A stretch of 64,000 nucleotides of DNA, taken from IMG/VR virus record IMGVR_UViG_3300036772_000557, positions 1-64,000 of that record; one strand, written 5' to 3'. Below the pieces are notes generated by a model, which saw only the letters and a list, made by a program, of their open reading frames with translations, did not search any database and was not told the origin of the DNA. This document shows, piece by piece, positions 160 to 7,974 of the stretch. Both the position numbers and the translations under genes were made by a program. Source of the stretch: a virus. Each line of letters opens with the position of its first letter. Position 1 is the stretch's first letter.

Positions 160-411
160 GAGATCCCGCCACCTAGAGAGCAGCGCTGGGTTGGGGATAT
201 GCTTTCCGGCCTCCCACATATTGAGAGCCGATTCGGACACGCCGATCTGAGCGGCAAGCACCCGGCAAGAAATGCGCAGCTTGTACCTCTCGCGCCTCAG
301 CGCCGGAAGCAGGGCAGTGACGAGGTGGATGTGCCGTTCCCGGATCGCCGCAACGGCATCAAGGTAAGATCCCAACCCGTCGGCACGACCGTCATACTGA
401 TGTAGGTCCAT
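148..411 (-). CDS. XRE-family HTH protein
   Basis: LRRERYKLRISCRVLAAQIGVSESALNMWEAGKHIP matches the HTH_3 pattern; start moved to MDLH with GGAAGG RBS. Confidence 0.75.
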   Translation of the reverse strand: MDLHQYDGRADGLGSYLDAVAAIRERHIHLVTALLPALRRERYKLRISCRVLAAQIGVSESALNMWEAGKHIPNPALLSRWRDLLGV

Positions 412-427
412 GGGTTTCCCTTCCGAA

Positions 428-784
428 TCAGACGATCGACCGTAAGATAAAATCCCACTCCGGGCAGGCGTCTGGATAGACATTGTAGAATGATTGTCTC
501 AGCCTCTCCCGCCTCTTTTCACGGGCCCTTTCTTTAAGGATCTCGGGATCTGGTTTGAAGGTCACGCGCTGGCCATGGAAGAGCCTCATCCAATCTGCAG
601 CGTCACCGTCTGCGCCGCATCCATGACAATGGTAGCGTCCCTCTCCACGCCGACCACGCCAGATCTGGAACGAGGGTGTTTTCTCGGAGTGGAAGGGACA
701 GAGCCCGGACCATCTCTCCCGGCCGCTGCGCCCGAGCTTTACCGTCCTCGAAACGATCTGCGCCAGCTCCTCGACGGTCATCAT
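428..784 (-). CDS. stand-alone CHC2 zinc-finger (DnaG primase Zn-binding domain) protein
   Basis: GLCPFHSEKTPSF...YHCHGCGADGDAADW motif; no TOPRIM domain follows. Confidence 0.85.
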   Translation of the reverse strand: MMTVEELAQIVSRTVKLGRSGRERWSGLCPFHSEKTPSFQIWRGRRGEGRYHCHGCGADGDAADWMRLFHGQRVTFKPDPEILKERAREKRRERLRQSFYNVYPDACPEWDFILRSIV

Positions 785-3048: not shown

Positions 3049-3342
3049 TCATGGCTGCAAAATTGCCGCTATTGCTGGCTCGACGAGGTCACGAAATGCT
3101 GACTCGTGATAGGATTTCGTGTCATAAATAACTTCGCCGCTAAAAAACTCGATATGGCCAAGACGCTGGACGTTTTTACTTATGTGACCATCGCTATCGA
3201 TAAAGCGCCCATCGAAATAAATGCGGCTCTTGCCGTTCTTCTCCCACACCTTGGCGCTCAGCAAATAGGTTCCGTAACCTGAAGTGACTAGGCGCTCACC
3301 GTTCAGCGCGGCAGATATTTTTTCGATTAGCTTAGGCATCAT
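3049..3342 (-). CDS. hypothetical phage protein (KVWEKNGKSRIY motif)
   Basis: GGAGGG RBS before MMPK; first gene after leftward promoter; lower GC. Confidence 0.65.
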   Translation of the reverse strand: MMPKLIEKISAALNGERLVTSGYGTYLLSAKVWEKNGKSRIYFDGRFIDSDGHISKNVQRLGHIEFFSGEVIYDTKSYHESAFRDLVEPAIAAILQP

Positions 3343-3363
3343 TCCCTCCGTTCCACCACCCTC

Positions 3364-3392
3364 AATATAGAATCTCCGGAACGCCACGTCAA
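3364..3392 (-). promoter_or_regulatory. sigma70-type promoter TTGACG-17-TATATT (leftward)
   Basis: cgtcaa 3387-3392 and aatata 3364-3369 on + strand, 17-bp spacer. Confidence 0.8.
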
Positions 3393-3421
3393 GTTTTTTC
3401 TCATCCCGACGCATATTTTCA

Positions 3422-3450
3422 TTGACGACCTCACGAGGCCACCCTATATT
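3422..3450 (+). promoter_or_regulatory. sigma70-type promoter TTGACG-17-TATATT (rightward)
   Basis: TTGACG 3422-3427, TATATT 3445-3450, 17-bp spacer containing palindrome CCTCACGAGG. Confidence 0.8.
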
Positions 3451-3530
3451 CCAATCATCAGAAACGAACCAACGCCATTCCCGTGAAAAAGGCCGGGGTC
3501 GCTACCTCCTCTAAGCCGGAGACGCGGGGA

Positions 3531-3583
3531 TGGGTCGCGGTGATGAGACACCGCCTGATGAGAGCCAGCGAGGACGAAACCCA
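3531..3583 (+). ncRNA. type III hammerhead ribozyme
   Basis: TGGGTC|GCGGTG-atgaga-CACCGC-CTGATGA-G..C-GAAA-CCCA: complete catalytic core, GUC cleavage triplet, perfect 6-bp stem I, stem III TGGGT/ACCCA; stem II is weak. Confidence 0.75.
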
Positions 3584-3883
3584 ATGCGCAACACGAATTA
3601 CTTCGGCCGGAAGATTGGCGCCGTTGTTACCGAGAAGCGCCGCGGCACGGTCTCTAGCGTGGTGGTCGGCGATGTTCGCCGCTTCACCGCCAACGAGCAG
3701 GAAATGGGGTCTGGCATCCTCAAGTTCATTCCTAAGATCGAATTGTCGGGCCCGGCTGCGAAGCGCATCGCTATAGGCCTCAGCGCTCTCAAAGCCGCGC
3801 AATGGAAACATGGTTGTGCCACTTGGGACTGCCTCGGCGATTACGACACCATGCTGTACTCGTATCGTGAGCGGGCGGCTTAG
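3584..3883 (+). CDS. hypothetical protein (99 aa)
   Basis: ATG directly after the ribozyme; GAGGA RBS inside stem II; ends in AA. Confidence 0.7.
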   Translation: MRNTNYFGRKIGAVVTEKRRGTVSSVVVGDVRRFTANEQEMGSGILKFIPKIELSGPAAKRIAIGLSALKAAQWKHGCATWDCLGDYDTMLYSYRERAA

Positions 3884-3931
3884 GCCGCCTTCCGCTTTCC
3901 CCCTCAACCCGATGAGCAGGAGCGAAACCCA

Positions 3932-4468
3932 ATGAGCGAGACGGAGTTTCCCGCAGAGGTCGTCAAGGACGCCACCCTCCCTAACGCTTGGCGAGTCGAA
4001 AAGCTTGATAGCGATGGCGACGGTGGTGTCGATCTAGCGATCTTCGATGGCCCAAATGCAGAAGCGCGAGCGCGGGAATATGCAGCCTGGAAATATGGAT
4101 CAAACGGCAGCAAGATCATCGCCGGGCTGCAGGATGCGCTTGCGCATGTTCGCGGCGATGTGACGGCTGCGCGTGTGTCCACAGTCAGCGATCCAGAACG
4201 CGAGAAGATGACGAAGTCTCAAGTGTGCGCTGATCGACTCCTTGGTGCAGCCGGGTTTGGCCCAGACGTTTTCGATACCGAGGAAGGCCACTTTGCTGGC
4301 TATGATCCAATGCTCAGCGCTTTCCTGTATCGCAAGGGGAAGATGCACGTCGCTGTACGACCCGATGGTCGGTTTGAATGGCACACCGACAGCGGGCGGT
4401 TTGGCGGCGGCGGCAAAGCCACGCTTGACGACGAAAGCATCGAAAGTCTCGCCCGTGCTACAGAATAG
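3932..4468 (+). CDS. hypothetical, apparently chimeric phage protein
   Basis: AGGAG RBS; N-terminal WRVE..DGDGG..AIFDGPNAEARAREYA domain, central SKIIAGLQDALAHVRG segment. Confidence 0.65.
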   Translation: MSETEFPAEVVKDATLPNAWRVEKLDSDGDGGVDLAIFDGPNAEARAREYAAWKYGSNGSKIIAGLQDALAHVRGDVTAARVSTVSDPEREKMTKSQVCADRLLGAAGFGPDVFDTEEGHFAGYDPMLSAFLYRKGKMHVAVRPDGRFEWHTDSGRFGGGGKATLDDESIESLARATE

Positions 4469-4515
4469 GCAAGCCGCCCGAACACCGACGAAACTGAGGA
4501 TCAGGAGTGAAACCC

Positions 4516-4701
4516 ATGAATCTCACGGACAGGCTTTATCGCGCCCTCGCGGTCCTGGTAGCGCAACATGATCGGCCACACGGCTTTAGCGATGAGCATT
4601 GGTATCGCGAGGCGCTTGAAACGGCGCGCGCCGCTCTAGCAGACGCCTTCGTGGAAATGAACTCATCAGACAACGCCACAGACAGTGGATCGCCACAATA
4701 G
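4516..4701 (+). CDS. cassette gene, hypothetical
   Basis: CAGGAG RBS; stop TAG inside repeat; ends TDSGSPQ. Confidence 0.65.
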   Translation: MNLTDRLYRALAVLVAQHDRPHGFSDEHWYREALETARAALADAFVEMNSSDNATDSGSPQ

Positions 4702-4763
4702 GCGAGCAGCCCCGAACACCGATGAAATCAACTACTTACACGTCTGTCGAACAGGAGGAACTG

Positions 4764-4985
4764 ATGCTCGGTACCAACAAACCAATTTGGTGGAGCCCAA
4801 CAATGCCGCACGACGAGGTCACGATTGACGAGCGCCTAAGAAACCTCGGTTATACGCACAGCAAGTCTCGACTCCTAGCTTATGCATCGACAGGAAAGCA
4901 CGAAATTCGCGATCCGCAGGGCAATGTGGTTGGACACTTCACTGCCAGCGAAGCGTGCGAGTTACTCGCTCGTCTCGGTGGGTAA
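4764..4985 (+). CDS. cassette gene, hypothetical
   Basis: AGGAGG RBS at 4753-4758 before MLGTNK. Confidence 0.65.
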   Translation: MLGTNKPIWWSPTMPHDEVTIDERLRNLGYTHSKSRLLAYASTGKHEIRDPQGNVVGHFTASEACELLARLGG

Positions 4986-5015
4986 TAGGCGAGCAGCCCG
5001 AACACCGAGGAAATC

Positions 5016-5216
5016 ATGACCGTTAAAATAAATCCACAAAATCTCCCGCCAGACAAGGCGCGCCACACAATAACAATCGGACGTGGCGGCGGGCGAGCTC
5101 TCATCATCAACGGCAAGTTTTTCTTGCCAAAAAAGGGAACTGAAGACGAATGGATATCTGACGATGGATCAACGATCCAGGGAACAAAACATACAGACGG
5201 TTGCTCGCCACAATAG
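5016..5216 (+). CDS. cassette gene, hypothetical
   Basis: GAGGA RBS supplied by repeat tail; ends TDGCSPQ. Confidence 0.65.
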   Translation: MTVKINPQNLPPDKARHTITIGRGGGRALIINGKFFLPKKGTEDEWISDDGSTIQGTKHTDGCSPQ

Positions 5217-5261
5217 GCGAGCAGCAGGAACACCGCCGAAATCCAATCATTGGAGGAGCAG

Positions 5262-5492
5262 ATGAACGATACCGCCTACGAGATCCGCAACTGCTACATT
5301 AGCAACGGCGAGGAAATCGTTGCGGAGCGTCTTTATGGCTATTTCGATTACACCGAGCTCGAAGAGTTTATTCAACGCTTTATTCGTAGCATTCTGGCTC
5401 CAGGCTGGAGGTCGTACCTGAGCATCGTGGATCACGACGGAAGAGAACGAAATTTCGTGAAATACGCCGCAGACGGCGGCTCGCCACAATAG
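5262..5492 (+). CDS. cassette gene, hypothetical
   Basis: GGAGGAG RBS before MNDTAY; ends ADGGSPQ. Confidence 0.65.
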   Translation: MNDTAYEIRNCYISNGEEIVAERLYGYFDYTELEEFIQRFIRSILAPGWRSYLSIVDHDGRERNFVKYAADGGSPQ

Positions 5493-5522
5493 GCGAGCAG
5501 CCCGAACACCGGAGAGCAAACG

Positions 5523-5753
5523 ATGTTTAAATTCGAGCCAGCGTTCGGCGAGTCAGATCGCCAGCATGAGGTAACCGACTGGAGCCAAGCAAAGGACCAA
5601 TTTTTGGAGCACCAAACTTACGAAGGCGCTGAACGCTATATCCTGACTACCCTATCGCTTCTCAAAGGGAACCTGATTGGTAACGACGAATATCGGACCA
5701 TGATCCGGCGCGTCGGGAAGTTCATTGACGCGTTCGGCGTCTACACACCTTAA
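5523..5753 (+). CDS. cassette gene, hypothetical
   Basis: GGAG RBS in repeat tail; TAA abuts the sixth repeat. Confidence 0.65.
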   Translation: MFKFEPAFGESDRQHEVTDWSQAKDQFLEHQTYEGAERYILTTLSLLKGNLIGNDEYRTMIRRVGKFIDAFGVYTP

Positions 5754-5786
5754 AATAGGCGAGCAGCCCGAACACCGATGAAATTA

Positions 5787-5859
5787 CCCCGTGCGAGTCG
5801 CAGAGCCCGGCCGAAGAGGTCGGGCCGAACAACGGGTGCAAATCCCGTGACGGGGGCCA
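5787..5859 (+). ncRNA. tRNA-like structured RNA ending in CCA
   Basis: Acceptor-like CCCCGT/ACGGGG + G + CCA; T arm ACGGG-TGCAAAT-CCCGT; central hairpin GCCCGGCC-GAAGA-GGTCGGGC; no canonical D or anticodon loop. Confidence 0.55.
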
Positions 5860-5884
5860 ACCAGATGAGCAGGAGCGAAACCCT

Positions 5885-5965
5885 ATGATTATCGCGATGA
5901 TATGCCTTAGTGCCCTAATCACGGCATGGATGGCTACTACCGATACCCCGAGCGCCGCTGCATAA
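5885..5965 (+). CDS. 26-aa hydrophobic peptide
   Basis: MIIAMICLSALITAWMATTDTPSAAA*, preceded by AGGAG RBS in a hammerhead-like unit. Confidence 0.45.
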   Translation: MIIAMICLSALITAWMATTDTPSAAA

Positions 5966-6123
5966 CCTTATTCAAAGAGGAGTAACCGATCGAGGAACCG
6001 ATCACCCCTGCTGACGGGGCCGCCCCTGAATATCGAGGCAGGGGCGGTCGGCTAAAGCGCAGGCTCGGCCATCAAACTTCGAAACGCGCTCCCATACAGA
6101 TGAGCGGAACAAGTCTGGCGTGG

Positions 6124-7974
6124 TCATGCCAACCCATAAGCGATGACTCGGGCATCGTATGGCGTCAGATACAGGATGCCGTCTGCGACTACAGGACCGA
6201 GAAATTTATTGAAGTCGAACTCATGGTTCCATCGTTGGCTGTCCCAGATGAGCGGGATCACTGCCCCGTTCGGACCCTCCTTGAACTGCGTCAGGTCATA
6301 GCCGAGCAGCCGACCGCGCGTGACCTCGCGGTTGGCGTCGCCGTAAGGGATGGTGGCGAACAAGACTGGTGTCTCAGCGGGTCGCGCCTGATCGTAGCAC
6401 AGGGACATGAACCCGCCCGGCATCCCGCCGGGGGGGACCGCCGCCTCGGGGCTGGCGTATTCCTCGCCGGCCGCGAGATAGGTGATTTTCACGTGGGGGG
6501 AGAGGCCGTGGATCGGCTCGATGCTCCACATCCGCAGGGTACTGTTCTCGCCCCAGCAGAGAAGCCGCCACCCCTGCGGGCTTTTCCATACGATCGGTGA
6601 GCCGTGCTGATGGTGTGTCCGACTGTAAAAAAGCTTGTTGAGATCCCTGATGTCGCTGGGCATCGGGCTTGCATCGGACGTGTAAAAGGTGAACCATATC
6701 GGTAGGCACGCCAACGCCATGTAATTTTTTGCGATCCCCTGCGCGGTCGACAGCATTTCCGGCGTCGTGCCGCCCATCGCGTTCAGGCGGACCGCGTAGA
6801 GGATGCCGTCCTTCCCAGAGACGAGGCAGAGCTCGAGCTCCTCGATGACGACCGGACCGCCCGAACCGAGATCCATGTCGATCGCCTCGGCCGGATTAAG
6901 CGGGACGTTGCCCGTGGCGGCATCTATCCTCTCGGCCGGCACCATCGCATAGCGCCGTAGGTTAGTGGGCGGCCGTTCCCGACGCGTCTGCTGAGCGATC
7001 TGTGTTGCCGCGACAACCGTTTCCGGCACCGTAACGGAAACCGCTTTCGGGGCCGCTACGCGGGCGCTATCGAGGAAGGGGCTCCAATGGTCGACCACCT
7101 TCAGTTCGCCCATCAGGGCGGGCCCGGGCGGCGTGTAGCGCAGCTTGATGACGCACTCTCCCCACTCGGTCTTGCCATCGAAGGTGCCGTTGCCGGTTAC
7201 CAGGATGATGTCGCCCTTGCTGTCGGCCGCGAGCCCCGCACCGGCCTGCCAGATACCGCCTCCCGAACCGATGACCGCGGTGCACAATGTGGCGGTGACT
7301 CTCCACAGCCGGACGTCGACGGCGATCACCCAGCCGCGGTTCGATGCGTCAATCTCGTAGATCGAGCCGAACCCGATGAACACGGTTTGCCCGAGCATCA
7401 GCAACGATGCCCGTTGCTTGCGGGCCGCGCTCGCGAATTTCTGTGGCGGGATCCCGCCGGGATCGTAGACAGCGCCCTCGAGGTCGAGCGGCTGCTTCGC
7501 GCGCGCTCCCGAGACGAGCGAGACCGCCTCGAGGAAGTGCCGAGCTCGAGCCACCGACCCGTCAGGGCTCGCCCAGCTGCAGGCGTAGAGCGTCTGGGTC
7601 GCCGGGTCGATGACTGGGGTCGACAGAATTCCCCAGTGGTCGTTAACAGCCCATCCGTCTATCGATTTATTGCCGTCGATCGGCCGACCGAGTTCGCGCT
7701 TCCAAAGCTCCGCACCAGTCTTCGCATCCGCACAGACGATCTCGTTCGCCATGGTCGCTACGACGAGCAGGTCGTGCACCTGGCCGTTCGTGAGACGCAC
7801 GCCCGGCAGGGTCAGGGGCTGCGCCTCAGCGCCGCGCGCGTCTCCCGGGAGGGGAAGCTCGTAGAGTTTTTTGATCCCGCGCGTCGCGACCGCCTGGGCC
7901 GTCAGAACGGTTTCGTTGGGATTCACCCCGGCGTTATCGGTCGTGTAGGCGCGGCGCGTGACCGCGACTGCCAT
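6124..7974 (-). CDS. PQQ-repeat-like beta-propeller protein (~616 aa)
   Basis: NETVLT...AQPL...DAKTGAELWKR...GILSTPVIDP...GGGIWQAGAGLAAD...DLGSGGP pattern; start placed at TAATG overlap with GGAGAG RBS; no signal peptide. Confidence 0.75.
   Translation of the reverse strand: MAVAVTRRAYTTDNAGVNPNETVLTAQAVATRGIKKLYELPLPGDARGAEAQPLTLPGVRLTNGQVHDLLVVATMANEIVCADAKTGAELWKRELGRPIDGNKSIDGWAVNDHWGILSTPVIDPATQTLYACSWASPDGSVARARHFLEAVSLVSGARAKQPLDLEGAVYDPGGIPPQKFASAARKQRASLLMLGQTVFIGFGSIYEIDASNRGWVIAVDVRLWRVTATLCTAVIGSGGGIWQAGAGLAADSKGDIILVTGNGTFDGKTEWGECVIKLRYTPPGPALMGELKVVDHWSPFLDSARVAAPKAVSVTVPETVVAATQIAQQTRRERPPTNLRRYAMVPAERIDAATGNVPLNPAEAIDMDLGSGGPVVIEELELCLVSGKDGILYAVRLNAMGGTTPEMLSTAQGIAKNYMALACLPIWFTFYTSDASPMPSDIRDLNKLFYSRTHHQHGSPIVWKSPQGWRLLCWGENSTLRMWSIEPIHGLSPHVKITYLAAGEEYASPEAAVPPGGMPGGFMSLCYDQARPAETPVLFATIPYGDANREVTRGRLLGYDLTQFKEGPNGAVIPLIWDSQRWNHEFDFNKFLGPVVADGILYLTPYDARVIAYGLA

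Follow-up and report, generated by a model that had tools for sequence, protein, structure and literature searches.

Three gene leaders in an early-type operon of a temperate phage are probably non-catalytic 3′ halves of type III hammerhead ribozymes, kept as translation-initiation modules at the junctions of gene cassettes. We analyzed a window of 64,000 nucleotides (positions 1 to 64,000 of IMG/VR record IMGVR_UViG_3300036772_000557), together with the 90-kb genome of this phage and related viral contigs. Four modules of one kind precede genes of the operon, and a complete hammerhead layout is present in one of the four (copy 1); copies 2, 3 and 4 are the modules considered here. The relevant features are as follows.

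409–431, minus strand: CUGAUUCGGAAGGGAAACCC-AUG, a degenerate leader that resembles the module (8.3 bits with covariance model R1), 5′ of gene 148-411 and containing the upstream gene's stop codon.
3422–3450, plus strand: sigma-70-like promoter TTGACG-17-TATATT, the sole plus-strand promoter match in 3300–6200.
3532–3586, plus strand: copy 1, a complete type III hammerhead layout (R1, 48.8 bits, E 1e-12).
3866–3895, plus strand: hairpin GGCGGC-UUAG-GCCGCC with the g1 stop codon in its loop, followed by a C-rich tract, UUUCCCCCUCAAC, that runs into copy 2.
3909–3934, plus strand: copy 2, truncated module CCGAUGA-GCAGGAGC-GAAACCC-A-AUG, with an AGGAG Shine-Dalgarno (SD) sequence 9 nt 5′ of the g2 AUG.
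3932–4468, plus strand: g2 (178 aa), with an N-terminal domain of ~55 aa kept in other phages.
4494–4518, plus strand: copy 3, diverged module CUGAGGA-UCAGGAGU-GAAACCC-AUG, with the SD 8 nt 5′ of the g3 AUG.
4516–4701, plus strand: g3 (61 aa), with coding-like GC1>GC2.
5787–5859, plus strand: tRNA-like cloverleaf ending in GCCA, 2 nt 5′ of copy 4.
5862–5887, plus strand: copy 4, truncated module CAGAUGA-GCAGGAGC-GAAACCC-U-AUG, adjoining the g8 start.
5885–5965, plus strand: g8, a putative gene whose status is less sure because it is a hydrophobic ORF of only 26 aa.
6004–6052, no strand assigned: G+C-rich hairpin at the operon end, between convergent genes, 95% identical to the L003 operon end.

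The three ~25-nt leaders share the consensus GA(U/G)GA-CAGGAG-(C/U)GAAACCC-(N)-AUG. An earlier, sequence-only reading of this DNA had described them as CCGATGA-GCAGGAGC-GAAA-CCCA-ATG (3909–3934), CTGAGGA-TCAGGAGT-GAAA-CCC-ATG (4494–4518) and CAGATGA-GCAGGAGC-GAAA-CCCT-ATG (5862–5887), and each is present where it was placed. Allowing up to three mismatches, the degenerate 20-mer GAKGAKCAGGAGYGAAACCC matches the window at exactly copies 2, 3 and 4, three occurrences against a chance expectation of 0.04, and none of 100 shuffles reaches three. A repeat search groups the same three copies into one family, in which copies 2 and 4 are identical at 29 of 31 positions (94% over 31 nt) and copy 3 reaches 71% identity. 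Copy 3, which lies directly 3′ of intergenic repeat 1, has no exact relative, its 18-mer returning no match in IMG/VR. The 20-mer matches in genome contigs and nine metagenome matches that have no AUG 3′ of the motif and no hammerhead context were set aside as unrelated to the modules.

In soil phages related to this one, the 20-mer that copies 2 and 4 carry recurs without a mismatch inside complete type III hammerheads, where it supplies the catalytic strand, stem-loop II and the stem III strand; such layouts are present in L001, L002, L003a, L068, L076 (twice), L079 and L080. These relatives carry a GUC cleavage site and a covarying 6-bp stem I, loop II is the SD sequence, and the AUG abuts stem III. 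Across 21 aligned complete members, retrieved with a search pattern that made no demand on stem I, this stem is 100% paired and five of its six pairs change on both sides. Copy 1 consists of GGGUC, a stem I formed by GCGGUG and CACCGC, CUGAUGA, an irregular stem II with GAGGA, and GAAACCC, followed by the g1 AUG (3584). Its R1 score extends over the full length; copies 4, 2 and 3 score 28.2, 22.7 and 6.7 bits, respectively, through their 3′ halves only. Copy 2 is moreover identical to the 3′ half of an L003a-type complete hammerhead that, in the closest relative, directly follows the same leader, and stop-in-loop hairpins like the one that precedes copy 2 lie 5′ of complete hammerheads in L076 and L080. 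Searched with blastn against cultured phages, neither a complete relative hammerhead nor region 3400–6100 gave a match. Judged from these alignments, the modules are descendants of the hammerhead family.

Truncation is a recurrent state among the relatives. Instances in a leader context comprise eight complete and seven truncated modules, the truncated ones always 5′ of an AUG and of unrelated genes. The same 20-mer followed by AUG occurs in truncated form in L003b, L004b, L069, L074 and L076#4, with complete hammerheads in the same operons; the L076 operon contains two complete and two truncated modules. All truncated relatives were retrieved by exact-match searches and thus represent close kin, not independent events. 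The AUG abuts stem III in 12 of the 15 complete hammerheads with an SD-like motif in stem-loop II versus none of the 36 others, and sister members carry GCAAGAGC or GCACGAGC in stem-loop II with a separate SD further downstream. This association and the sister members point to an order of events in which the ribozyme came first and the ribosome-binding site second.

In the core and stem II, the three modules differ from one another. Copy 3 (CUGAGGA) fits the core strand C3-U4-G5-A6-N7-G8-A9, in which N7 is free. At core position 4, where copy 3 has U, copy 2 has C (CCGAUGA), a substitution found in five of 51 complete phage hammerheads, and copy 4 has A (CAGAUGA), which occurs in none of the 51. 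GAAA supplies the 3′ core strand G12-A13-A14 together with A15.1 in every copy. Stem II of copies 2 and 4 consists of a G-C and a C-G pair closed by an AGGA loop, as in the complete relatives; copy 3 has a U10.1-U11.1 mismatch and a single C-G pair. This mismatch is a known natural variant and 2-bp stems II are common (PMC3088659). Since the core of copy 3 is formally intact and C4 occurs in complete hammerheads, the core changes alone do not prove inactivity.

Stems I and III are absent. For copies 2–4, neither the immediate surroundings nor the transcript nor the genome offers a strand that could complete a stem I adjoining C3, and the covariance-model alignment has 30–38 unaligned nucleotides in place of stem I. 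Likewise, for a stem III with A15.1-U16.1 and an N-U-H site, ACCC has no GGGUH partner with a matching stem I, and copy 2 aligns to R1 without U16.1. The earlier remark that no local GUC substrate strand or stem I accompanies these modules is correct for copies 2–4. The Rfam hammerhead model RF00008 detects none at gathering score in the window and none at E up to 10 in 3300–6200, a model that also missed the complete relatives L001 and L002, which have 2-bp stems II. Without a stem I, a stem III or a cleavage-site strand, the three modules cannot be classed as hammerheads. We also considered a copy 4 hammerhead that uses GGUC at 5818–5821 and rejected it: the site, the only GGUC nearby, is enclosed in the 8-bp central hairpin of the tRNA-like cloverleaf, the core has A at position 4, and stem I would amount to 1+4 bp interrupted by a bulge of 2 nt.

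AGGAG precedes an ATG by 8–9 nt in each of the three modules, and this ATG, the last element of the module, opens an ORF. Local folding leaves copy 3 without a stable structure (z −0.13) and pairs copies 2 and 4 only weakly. Complete members of this sub-class run from a GGGUC cleavage site through a 6-bp stem I hairpin and CUGAUGA into a 2-bp stem II, whose AGGA loop is the SD, and then through GAAA and the ACCC strand of stem III to an AUG 0–1 nt further on. The window copies retain only the stretch from core G5 to the AUG, which, having lost stem I and the cleavage strand, is unstructured. With AGGAG 8–9 nt before the start in such a stretch, the copies would work as ordinary SD sites, serving g2, g3 and g8 within a single transcript from the promoter at 3422–3450. 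We infer that the modules are SD initiation regions that drive translation and that they do not cleave; as single elements, they are most likely ordinary ribosome-binding sites.

The surroundings of the modules vary more than the modules themselves. In the comparison with L003, conservation is limited to the leader (91%), the terminator (95%), the modules and a portion of the intergenic repeat, and does not extend to the cargo. Contigs from soil metagenomes cover this punctuation deeply and the cargo thinly, and carry the same elements in other combinations. Among sequencing runs, the stretch is listed in two DNA runs of soil metagenomes, possibly its source, and in no RNA run. One metagenome variant links position 3533 straight to 3909 through 21 letters of stem I, producing a complete hammerhead that uses the sequence of copy 2. 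Conserved punctuation thus surrounds variable cargo. The probable origin of the orphaned 3′ halves would be the insertion or exchange of cassettes at hammerhead junctions, and the shared module sequence is presumably used for recombination. The sequence-only reading had proposed decayed ribozymes exapted as a ribosome-binding and recombination module. This proposal is supported by the 20-mer inside complete relatives, by truncated copies 5′ of unrelated genes, by punctuation that is conserved without its cargo in the closest relative, and by soil contigs that join the same elements in other combinations; a recombination role is presumed. The same reading had suggested aligning homologous leaders to look for intact versions, but g2 orthologues carry quite different leaders: g2 alone as query recovers no related loci, and an alignment recovers six, all with unrelated leaders. 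The conserved domain of g2 begins at residue 5.

There is a modest chance that the 3′ half is instead a portable, universal start module of this soil-phage lineage, to which the 5′ half (cleavage strand and stem I) is added, or from which it is lost, by recombination at the conserved core. If so, each junction of the early operon would be switchable between a cleaved state, giving an mRNA of its own with a 5′-OH and a hairpin head, and an uncleaved, polycistronic state, with the ribosome-binding site unchanged. Truncated copies would then be one of two maintained states rather than fossils, and would separate the part of a hammerhead selected for translation from the part selected for RNA processing.

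GAUGAG is retained in copies where catalysis is impossible, and a role as ribosome-binding site leaves this retention unexplained; it may reflect hitch-hiking in young copies or another use. It is improbable, we judge, that GAUGAG has a job of its own, either opening a 7-codon mini-ORF with coupled re-initiation or providing a tandem UGA UGA that closes upstream frames. The mini-ORF AUG AGC AGG AGC GAA ACC CNA UGA can be read in copies 2 and 4, its stop overlapping the gene's AUG (AUGA), and the same arrangement, counted from the sequences, recurs in 11 of the 13 relatives with a 1-nt spacer; in L003c, the upstream gene terminates at the UGA of CUGAUGAG. However, no SD precedes the mini-ORF, copy 3 lacks its AUG, the register is lost in variants whose spacer is 0 nt, and an A following AUG is common anyway. 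The mini-ORF may be a by-product, because catalysis already keeps CUGAUGA invariant in complete hammerheads.

Ordinary purine-rich ribosome-binding sites might resemble a hammerhead core by coincidence, with no ribozyme ancestry. SD regions are purine-rich, as is the core, and CAGGAG-N-GAAACCC-(N)-ATG occurs without a preceding GAUGA at 46 other distinct viral-contig sites. The sequence-only reading had itself allowed that GAAACCC-ATG might be a general ribosome-binding motif. The outcome is mixed. Within this phage it is not general, serving four of the eight operon genes and six starts in the 90 kb, but CAGGAG-N-GAAACCC-ATG is indeed common in unrelated viral contigs without GAUGA and so proves nothing alone. 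The Rfam result and copy 3, the most diverged copy, also fit coincidence. It is nevertheless very improbable: the identity with the complete hammerheads of relatives is 20 of 20 and includes GAUGAG, the operon opens with a complete hammerhead, here as in L003, L004 and L076, and in the metagenome variant a complete hammerhead that follows the same leader has exactly the copy 2 sequence for its 3′ half. Furthermore, GAUGA is present at five of the six IMG/VR sites that match GCAGGAGCGAAACCC-N0-2-ATG. For copies 2 and 4, these sequence comparisons largely refute a chance resemblance.

An identical 20-nt box 5′ of several unrelated genes of one early-type operon, conserved beyond the needs of an SD, could also be a binding or cleavage site for a phage or host protein, such as a translational repressor or an SD-cutting endoribonuclease (compare T4 RegA or RegB). 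We regard this as highly improbable, given that descent from a ribozyme already accounts for the box, that it precedes only four of the eight operon genes, and that no candidate protein emerged, with all eight operon proteins lacking a Pfam match.

The sequence-only reading's second proposal, enzyme half-strands that cut a remote GGGUH strand, either elsewhere on their own polycistronic RNA or in trans, is extremely improbable, although the CUGA(N)GA...GAAA core is intact in copy 3 and in the truncated copies of L069, L074 and L076#4, natural hammerheads tolerate a 2-bp stem II and a U-U closing mismatch (PMC3088659), and stems can be weak enough in nature that a weakly paired remote substrate is conceivable. 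Throughout the predicted transcript and the 90-kb genome, no U-H site pairs both arms above chance. On both strands of the genome, copies 2 and 4 have no site with stem I and stem III each of at least 4 bp, and the best sites for copy 3 (4+5 and 4+4 bp) do not surpass the chance sites of copy 1, whose own site the same scan locates at once. Within transcript 3440–6060, a scan that allows bulges and mismatches leaves copies 2 and 3 without any candidate and gives copy 4 one that scores at chance level; copy 4 also bears the A4 absent from the 51 complete hammerheads, and its nearby GGUC is enclosed in a fold of −42.7 kcal/mol. For L076#4, a GGUC 41 nt to the 5′ side would allow a bulged stem I of 7 bp, again with a score at chance level, and the 5′ flanks of truncated copies vary among relatives with no visible partner strand. 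Martick et al. (2008) reportedly described a discontinuous hammerhead in mammalian Clec2 3′ UTRs whose strands lie far apart in one mRNA, are complementary and are conserved together; unlike that case, the modules here have no partner strand in the transcript or the 90-kb genome.

As non-catalytic 3′ halves used for initiation, the modules can be set beside several known systems. Start-Associated Sequences of Cluster K mycobacteriophages and PeSL cassettes of T4-type phages are short conserved boxes before the start codons of a gene subset, found in hyperplastic regions where genes are small and the cargo varies, and have been proposed to act in translation and modular shuffling. The modules share with them a conserved box before the starts of a gene subset with variable cargo; the sequences are unrelated. 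To our knowledge, neither of these elements derives from a ribozyme. PeSL carries a promoter, unlike this operon, which has no internal promoter match. RiboJ and the designs of Ogawa and Maeda and of Wieland and Hartig are said to place a hammerhead directly 5′ of a ribosome-binding site, so that cleavage sets the 5′ end and the context of that site. Synthetic ribozyme insulators and hammerhead-gated devices of this type are, as far as we know, engineered and always catalytic, whereas the three modules occur naturally and no longer possess a catalytic architecture.

The closest natural precedent is the clustered type III, II and I hammerheads that flank single genes in prophage and phage operons, described as complete, cleaving units by Perreault et al. 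2011 (PMC3088659). Our modules resemble those hammerheads (Rfam RF00008, clan CL00010) in their temperate phage host, small genes, intergenic site and core with GAAAC, and complete members of the same sequence family stand at the head of this operon and in the operons of relatives; unlike the units of Perreault et al., the three modules have no stem I, cleavage-site strand or stem III. A literature search that included text of PMC3088659 returned no account of such halves, stripped of the ribozyme, serving as ribosome-binding sites.

The role of hammerheads in phages is still an open question (PMC3088659, PMC6155905). The family described here offers a natural comparison, since its members share one 20-nt start module that in some places has the cleavage half attached and in others lacks it, ahead of unrelated genes and sometimes within one operon. 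Such pairs therefore permit a direct test of what cleavage adds to a ribosome-binding site alone, whether in mRNA stability, definition of the 5′ end or translation yield. The three modules would be an example of a catalytic RNA converted to a plain translation signal, and the conserved punctuation illustrates how the borders between exchangeable cassettes of temperate phages can be marked.

The six intergenic repeats of the operon were considered as internal promoters and rejected; none has a promoter match, and one ends 2 nt before a start codon. A 20-mer from the intergenic repeat has no match in IMG/VR, and ARAGORN predicts no tRNA anywhere in the window, the cloverleaf at 5787–5859 included. 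A mirror copy of the promoter lies on the minus strand at 3392–3364. On the same strand, GGAAGGGAAACCC-ATG precedes gene 148-411, as the sequence-only reading had observed.

The virus record is 90,448 bp long, with the window as its first 64 kb, and has a G+C content of 61%. Because it encodes an integrase, a Sak4-like protein, a minor tail protein and a head-tail adaptor, and is present in two soil-metagenome DNA runs, we regard it as an uncultured temperate tailed phage from soil. The three leaders examined here (copies 2, 3 and 4) lie, together with a fuller hammerhead-like copy (copy 1), in an operon of eight small ORFs (g1-g8) headed by the rightward member of a predicted promoter pair. 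None of the eight products matched Pfam. Neither an additional promoter nor a plus-strand terminator was predicted within the g1-g8 run, from which we infer a single transcript.

3364-3450, both strands: two mirror-image sigma-70-like promoters, each TTGACG-17-TATATT (promoter prediction)
3532-3586, plus strand: copy 1, with GGGUC, a perfect 6-bp stem I, CUGAUGA, a longer stem II with GAGGA, and GAAACCC-A-AUG
3584-3883, plus strand: g1
3909-3934: copy 2
3932-4468, plus strand: g2
4494-4518: copy 3
4516-4701, plus strand: g3
4764-4985, plus strand: g4
5016-5216, plus strand: g5
5262-5492, plus strand: g6
5523-5753, plus strand: g7
5787-5859: tRNA-like cloverleaf (MFE fold) with acceptor CCCCGU/ACGGGG, a T-arm-like hairpin and a GCCA end
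5862-5887: copy 4
5885-5965, plus strand: g8
near 6018-6052: G+C-rich hairpin at the operon end, facing a convergent gene

The divergent promoter-like sites stand back to back, 30 nt apart, with the same hexamers and spacing, and resemble a symmetric switch region that separates the leftward genes from the cassette operon.

Copies 2-4 are located exactly where the sequence-only reading placed them, and, as it stated, no GUC substrate strand or stem I was found near them. A degenerate 20-mer covering all three has only 3 matches in the 64 kb, even with up to three mismatches, where sequence shuffles predict 0.04. Copies 2 and 4 are identical at 29 of 31 positions, including 5 nt 5′ of the core; copy 3 shares 71% identity with copy 2 over the 31-nt repeat. 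GAAACCC-ATG is not a general ribosome-binding context of this phage: GAAACCC with a start codon within 3 nt is found at six places in the entire 90 kb, of which four lie in the g1-g8 operon and another is a degenerate minus-strand copy (409-431), and g4-g7 of the same operon use other Shine-Dalgarno (SD) contexts. The combination of SD, GAAACCC and AUG is not special by itself, since viral contigs contain 46 other distinct sites that combine CAGGAG-N-GAAACCC-(N)-ATG with unrelated upstream sequence, about the chance yield of the huge number of phage ribosome-binding sites. Hammerhead descent of the window copies is marked by the added GAUGAG, 20/20 identity with complete ribozymes and shared operons. 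Beyond the window, at genome 71567-71579, GAUGAG-GAAACCC-AAC-AUG precedes a plus-strand ORF; this leader is module-like, lacks stem-loop II and has GAGGA as its SD.

Contigs of IMG/VR, JGI metagenomes and GTDB contain exact matches to the 20-mer that copies 2 and 4 share; those with neither a following AUG nor hammerhead context were set aside as unrelated. Of the leader-context matches, eight represent complete type III hammerheads (related loci L001, L002, L003a, L068, L076 twice, L079 and L080b; letters and #n denote separate copies within a locus), with GGGUC or GGUC, a 6-bp stem I, C(U/C)GAUGA, GCAGGAGC, GAAACCC and an AUG 0-1 nt later; their stem I varies from phage to phage by compensatory changes. 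A second class of seven is truncated and shows neither a cleavage strand nor a stem I (the two window copies, L003b, L004b, L069, L074 and L076#4), with near-matches in window copy 3, L003c and L076#2, and an AUG follows every truncated copy. Intact versions thus exist in the leaders of related phages, and the proposal that the modules are decayed ribozymes exapted as ribosome-binding sites gains support from both the identity to complete hammerheads and the placement before AUG. A broader pattern, in which only GGGTC, CNGATGAG and CGAAACCC were fixed, found 59 viral contigs, 57 of them with paired stems I and II. When 21 complete members are aligned, all cells of stem I (100%) are paired, and five of its six pairs show changes on both sides; shifting the partner by one column as a control reduces pairing to 37-46%. 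As stem I is paired and covarying, the complete relatives fall within the sequence and structure definition of a type III hammerhead. A 2-bp stem II is already described as common in hammerheads (PMC3088659). Rfam's own model misses the complete relatives with a short stem II, which explains why the window has no Rfam hammerhead match. Truncated modules have C-rich, G-poor tracts (CCCCCUCAACC, CCCCACC, CCCAACC, CCCCACCC) on their 5′ side where stem I would otherwise be (window 3896-3908; L003 5700-5724; L074 minus strand 988-998; L076 minus strand 1741-1750 and 2326-2335). Their occurrence in different phages suggests that the tract is part of the truncated unit.

Where the AUG abuts stem III, the complete hammerheads also hint at the direction of change: among 51 distinct sequences, which are related so that the figures are descriptive, this arrangement is found in 12 of 15 with an SD-like motif in stem-loop II vs 0 of 36 without one. 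In sister members with the same loop I, stem-loop II contains GCAAGAGC, GCACGAGC or GCAGAAGC, and a separate SD follows 8-15 nt downstream; GCAGGAGC and GCAAGAGC are one substitution apart. The simplest order would be a ribozyme, then a ribozyme whose loop II had turned into an SD, and finally a module stripped of its 5′ half. The reverse, with a ribosome-binding site later recruited into a ribozyme, is conceivable but takes more steps.

The same sequence-only reading also considered that the modules might be half-strands pairing with a distant or trans substrate, and this finds no support. Scored with a covariance model of the 21 complete members, copy 1 reaches 48.8 bits over its full length (E 1e-12) and copies 4, 2 and 3 reach 28.2, 22.7 and 6.7 bits; copies 4 and 2 align with 30-38 unaligned bases where stem I would be, and copy 2 is without U16.1. 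For every U-H dinucleotide on both strands of the 90-kb genome, we asked whether the flanking sequence could pair contiguously with the two arms of each module. Copy 1 recovered its own site, with 6 bp in stem I and 4 bp in stem III, no site gave copies 2 or 4 at least 4 bp in both stems, and the best sites of copy 3 (4+5 and 4+4 bp) were no better than chance sites of copy 1's arms. Allowing 1-nt bulges and mismatches in the predicted transcript yielded no candidate for copies 2 and 3 and only chance-level ones for copy 4 (1.5 expected). Applied to the relatives, this test detected the local site of each complete copy; truncated copies gave nothing comparable, apart from a bulged, chance-level possibility for L076#4. 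The only GGUC near copy 4 lies inside the 8-bp central hairpin of the tRNA-like fold. Core position 4 is C, U and A in copies 2, 3 and 4, respectively; complete phage hammerheads have U (46) or C (5) there, and none has A or G. Across truncated copies, similarity starts at G5 and positions 3-4 vary. Copies 2-4 lack the defining features of a hammerhead, namely a cleavage site and stems I and III, and we file them as hammerhead-derived ribosome-binding modules; a split ribozyme with very weak stems is a formal possibility. The five complete phage hammerheads with C4 (CCGAUGA; L004, L040, L045, L050 and L003) have otherwise perfect stems, and C4, which is not among the core variants given in the consulted sections of PMC3088659, may be a tolerated natural variant. 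Copy 1, though complete, may be impaired because its stem II (3562-3575, GAGCC-AGCG-AGGAC) is irregular, with A-A at the second and G-G at the third position; unlike it, stem II of L004a and L080a (GUUCC...AGGAC) forms 4 pairs.

The modules are best read as SD initiation regions, since AGGAG lies 8-9 nt 5′ of AUG, the stretch retained without the 5′ half has little structure, g2 is a real gene with a conserved domain from residue 5, and g3 has coding-like composition. Taken as single elements, they are probably plain ribosome-binding sites. A 7-codon mini-ORF, M-S-R-S-E-T-Q/L (3913-3935 and 5866-5888), begins at the AUG within the GAUGAG core remnant, and its UGA overlaps the gene start as AUGA; 11 of 13 relatives with a 1-nt spacer keep this register. 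The mini-ORF may serve as a coupling device or may be a by-product of the core. The tRNA-like fold (-42.7 kcal/mol, z -2.5), at which ARAGORN called no tRNA, has its 3′ end 2 nt before copy 4. Speculatively, tRNA-maturing enzymes acting there could define the 5′ end of g8 mRNA, replacing the missing hammerhead cut.

The modules belong to the operon scaffold and not to the genes, since the g2 domain has orthologues in six other viral contigs whose leaders are ordinary and unrelated. No cargo gene is common to the window and L003, the closest relative; the two share the upstream ClpX-zinc-finger gene (83%), the terminal hairpin (95%), the 5′ leader (91% over 89 nt), the modules and part of an intergenic repeat. 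In L003, L004 and the window the order is leader, complete hammerhead, short gene, truncated module and next gene, with unrelated genes between the conserved elements. Contigs of the two soil runs, one of which may be the source of the virus record, are deep over this punctuation (depth 123 over 3494-3590 in X1) and thin or empty over cargo (depth 0 over g1 in X1). They join 3533 to 3909 via 21 letters forming stem I, 3528 to 3911 via another stem I, intergenic repeats to one another, and a repeat to a truncated module via 5 letters; these alternative joins belong to relatives present in the same soils and need not record events in this phage. The 3533-3909 join yields a complete hammerhead of the L003a type, with copy 2, C4 included, as its 3′ half. 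The joins nevertheless show copy 2 to be the orphaned 3′ half of the hammerhead that lies directly behind the same leader in relatives; in this phage it was probably displaced by an incoming cassette bearing its own hammerhead (copy 1) and g1. Of the suggestion that the modules serve recombination, conserved punctuation, variable cargo and alternative joins bear out the cassette pattern, and that the shared sequences act as the joints is a reasonable inference. An intergenic repeat of ~30 nt (TAGGCGAGCAGCCCGAACACCGANGAAAT) has six copies at 4464-5785, each starting at a stop codon. Three ORFs upstream of repeats end SPQ*, with the stop in or beside a CUCGCC/GGCGAG hairpin. The 3′ end of the repeat, CCGAUGAAAU, looks like the module minus stem-loop II, and L003 has a related repeat and inverted copies.

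Clustered hammerheads flanking single genes are known in prophages, and U-U closing mismatches and rare core variants have been described (PMC3088659). The function of prokaryotic hammerheads has been called an open question (PMC6155905). In a limited literature search we found no description of ribozyme-less hammerhead halves kept as start modules; the natural series with and without the ribozyme makes the role of phage hammerheads testable. At the far end of the operon, L003 7596-7731 (homologous to window ~6004-6130, which gives no match at the gathering score) has a weak match to the Rfam Proteo-phage-1 RNA (31.8 bits vs a gathering score of 42, E 0.022) that begins at the conserved terminal hairpin.
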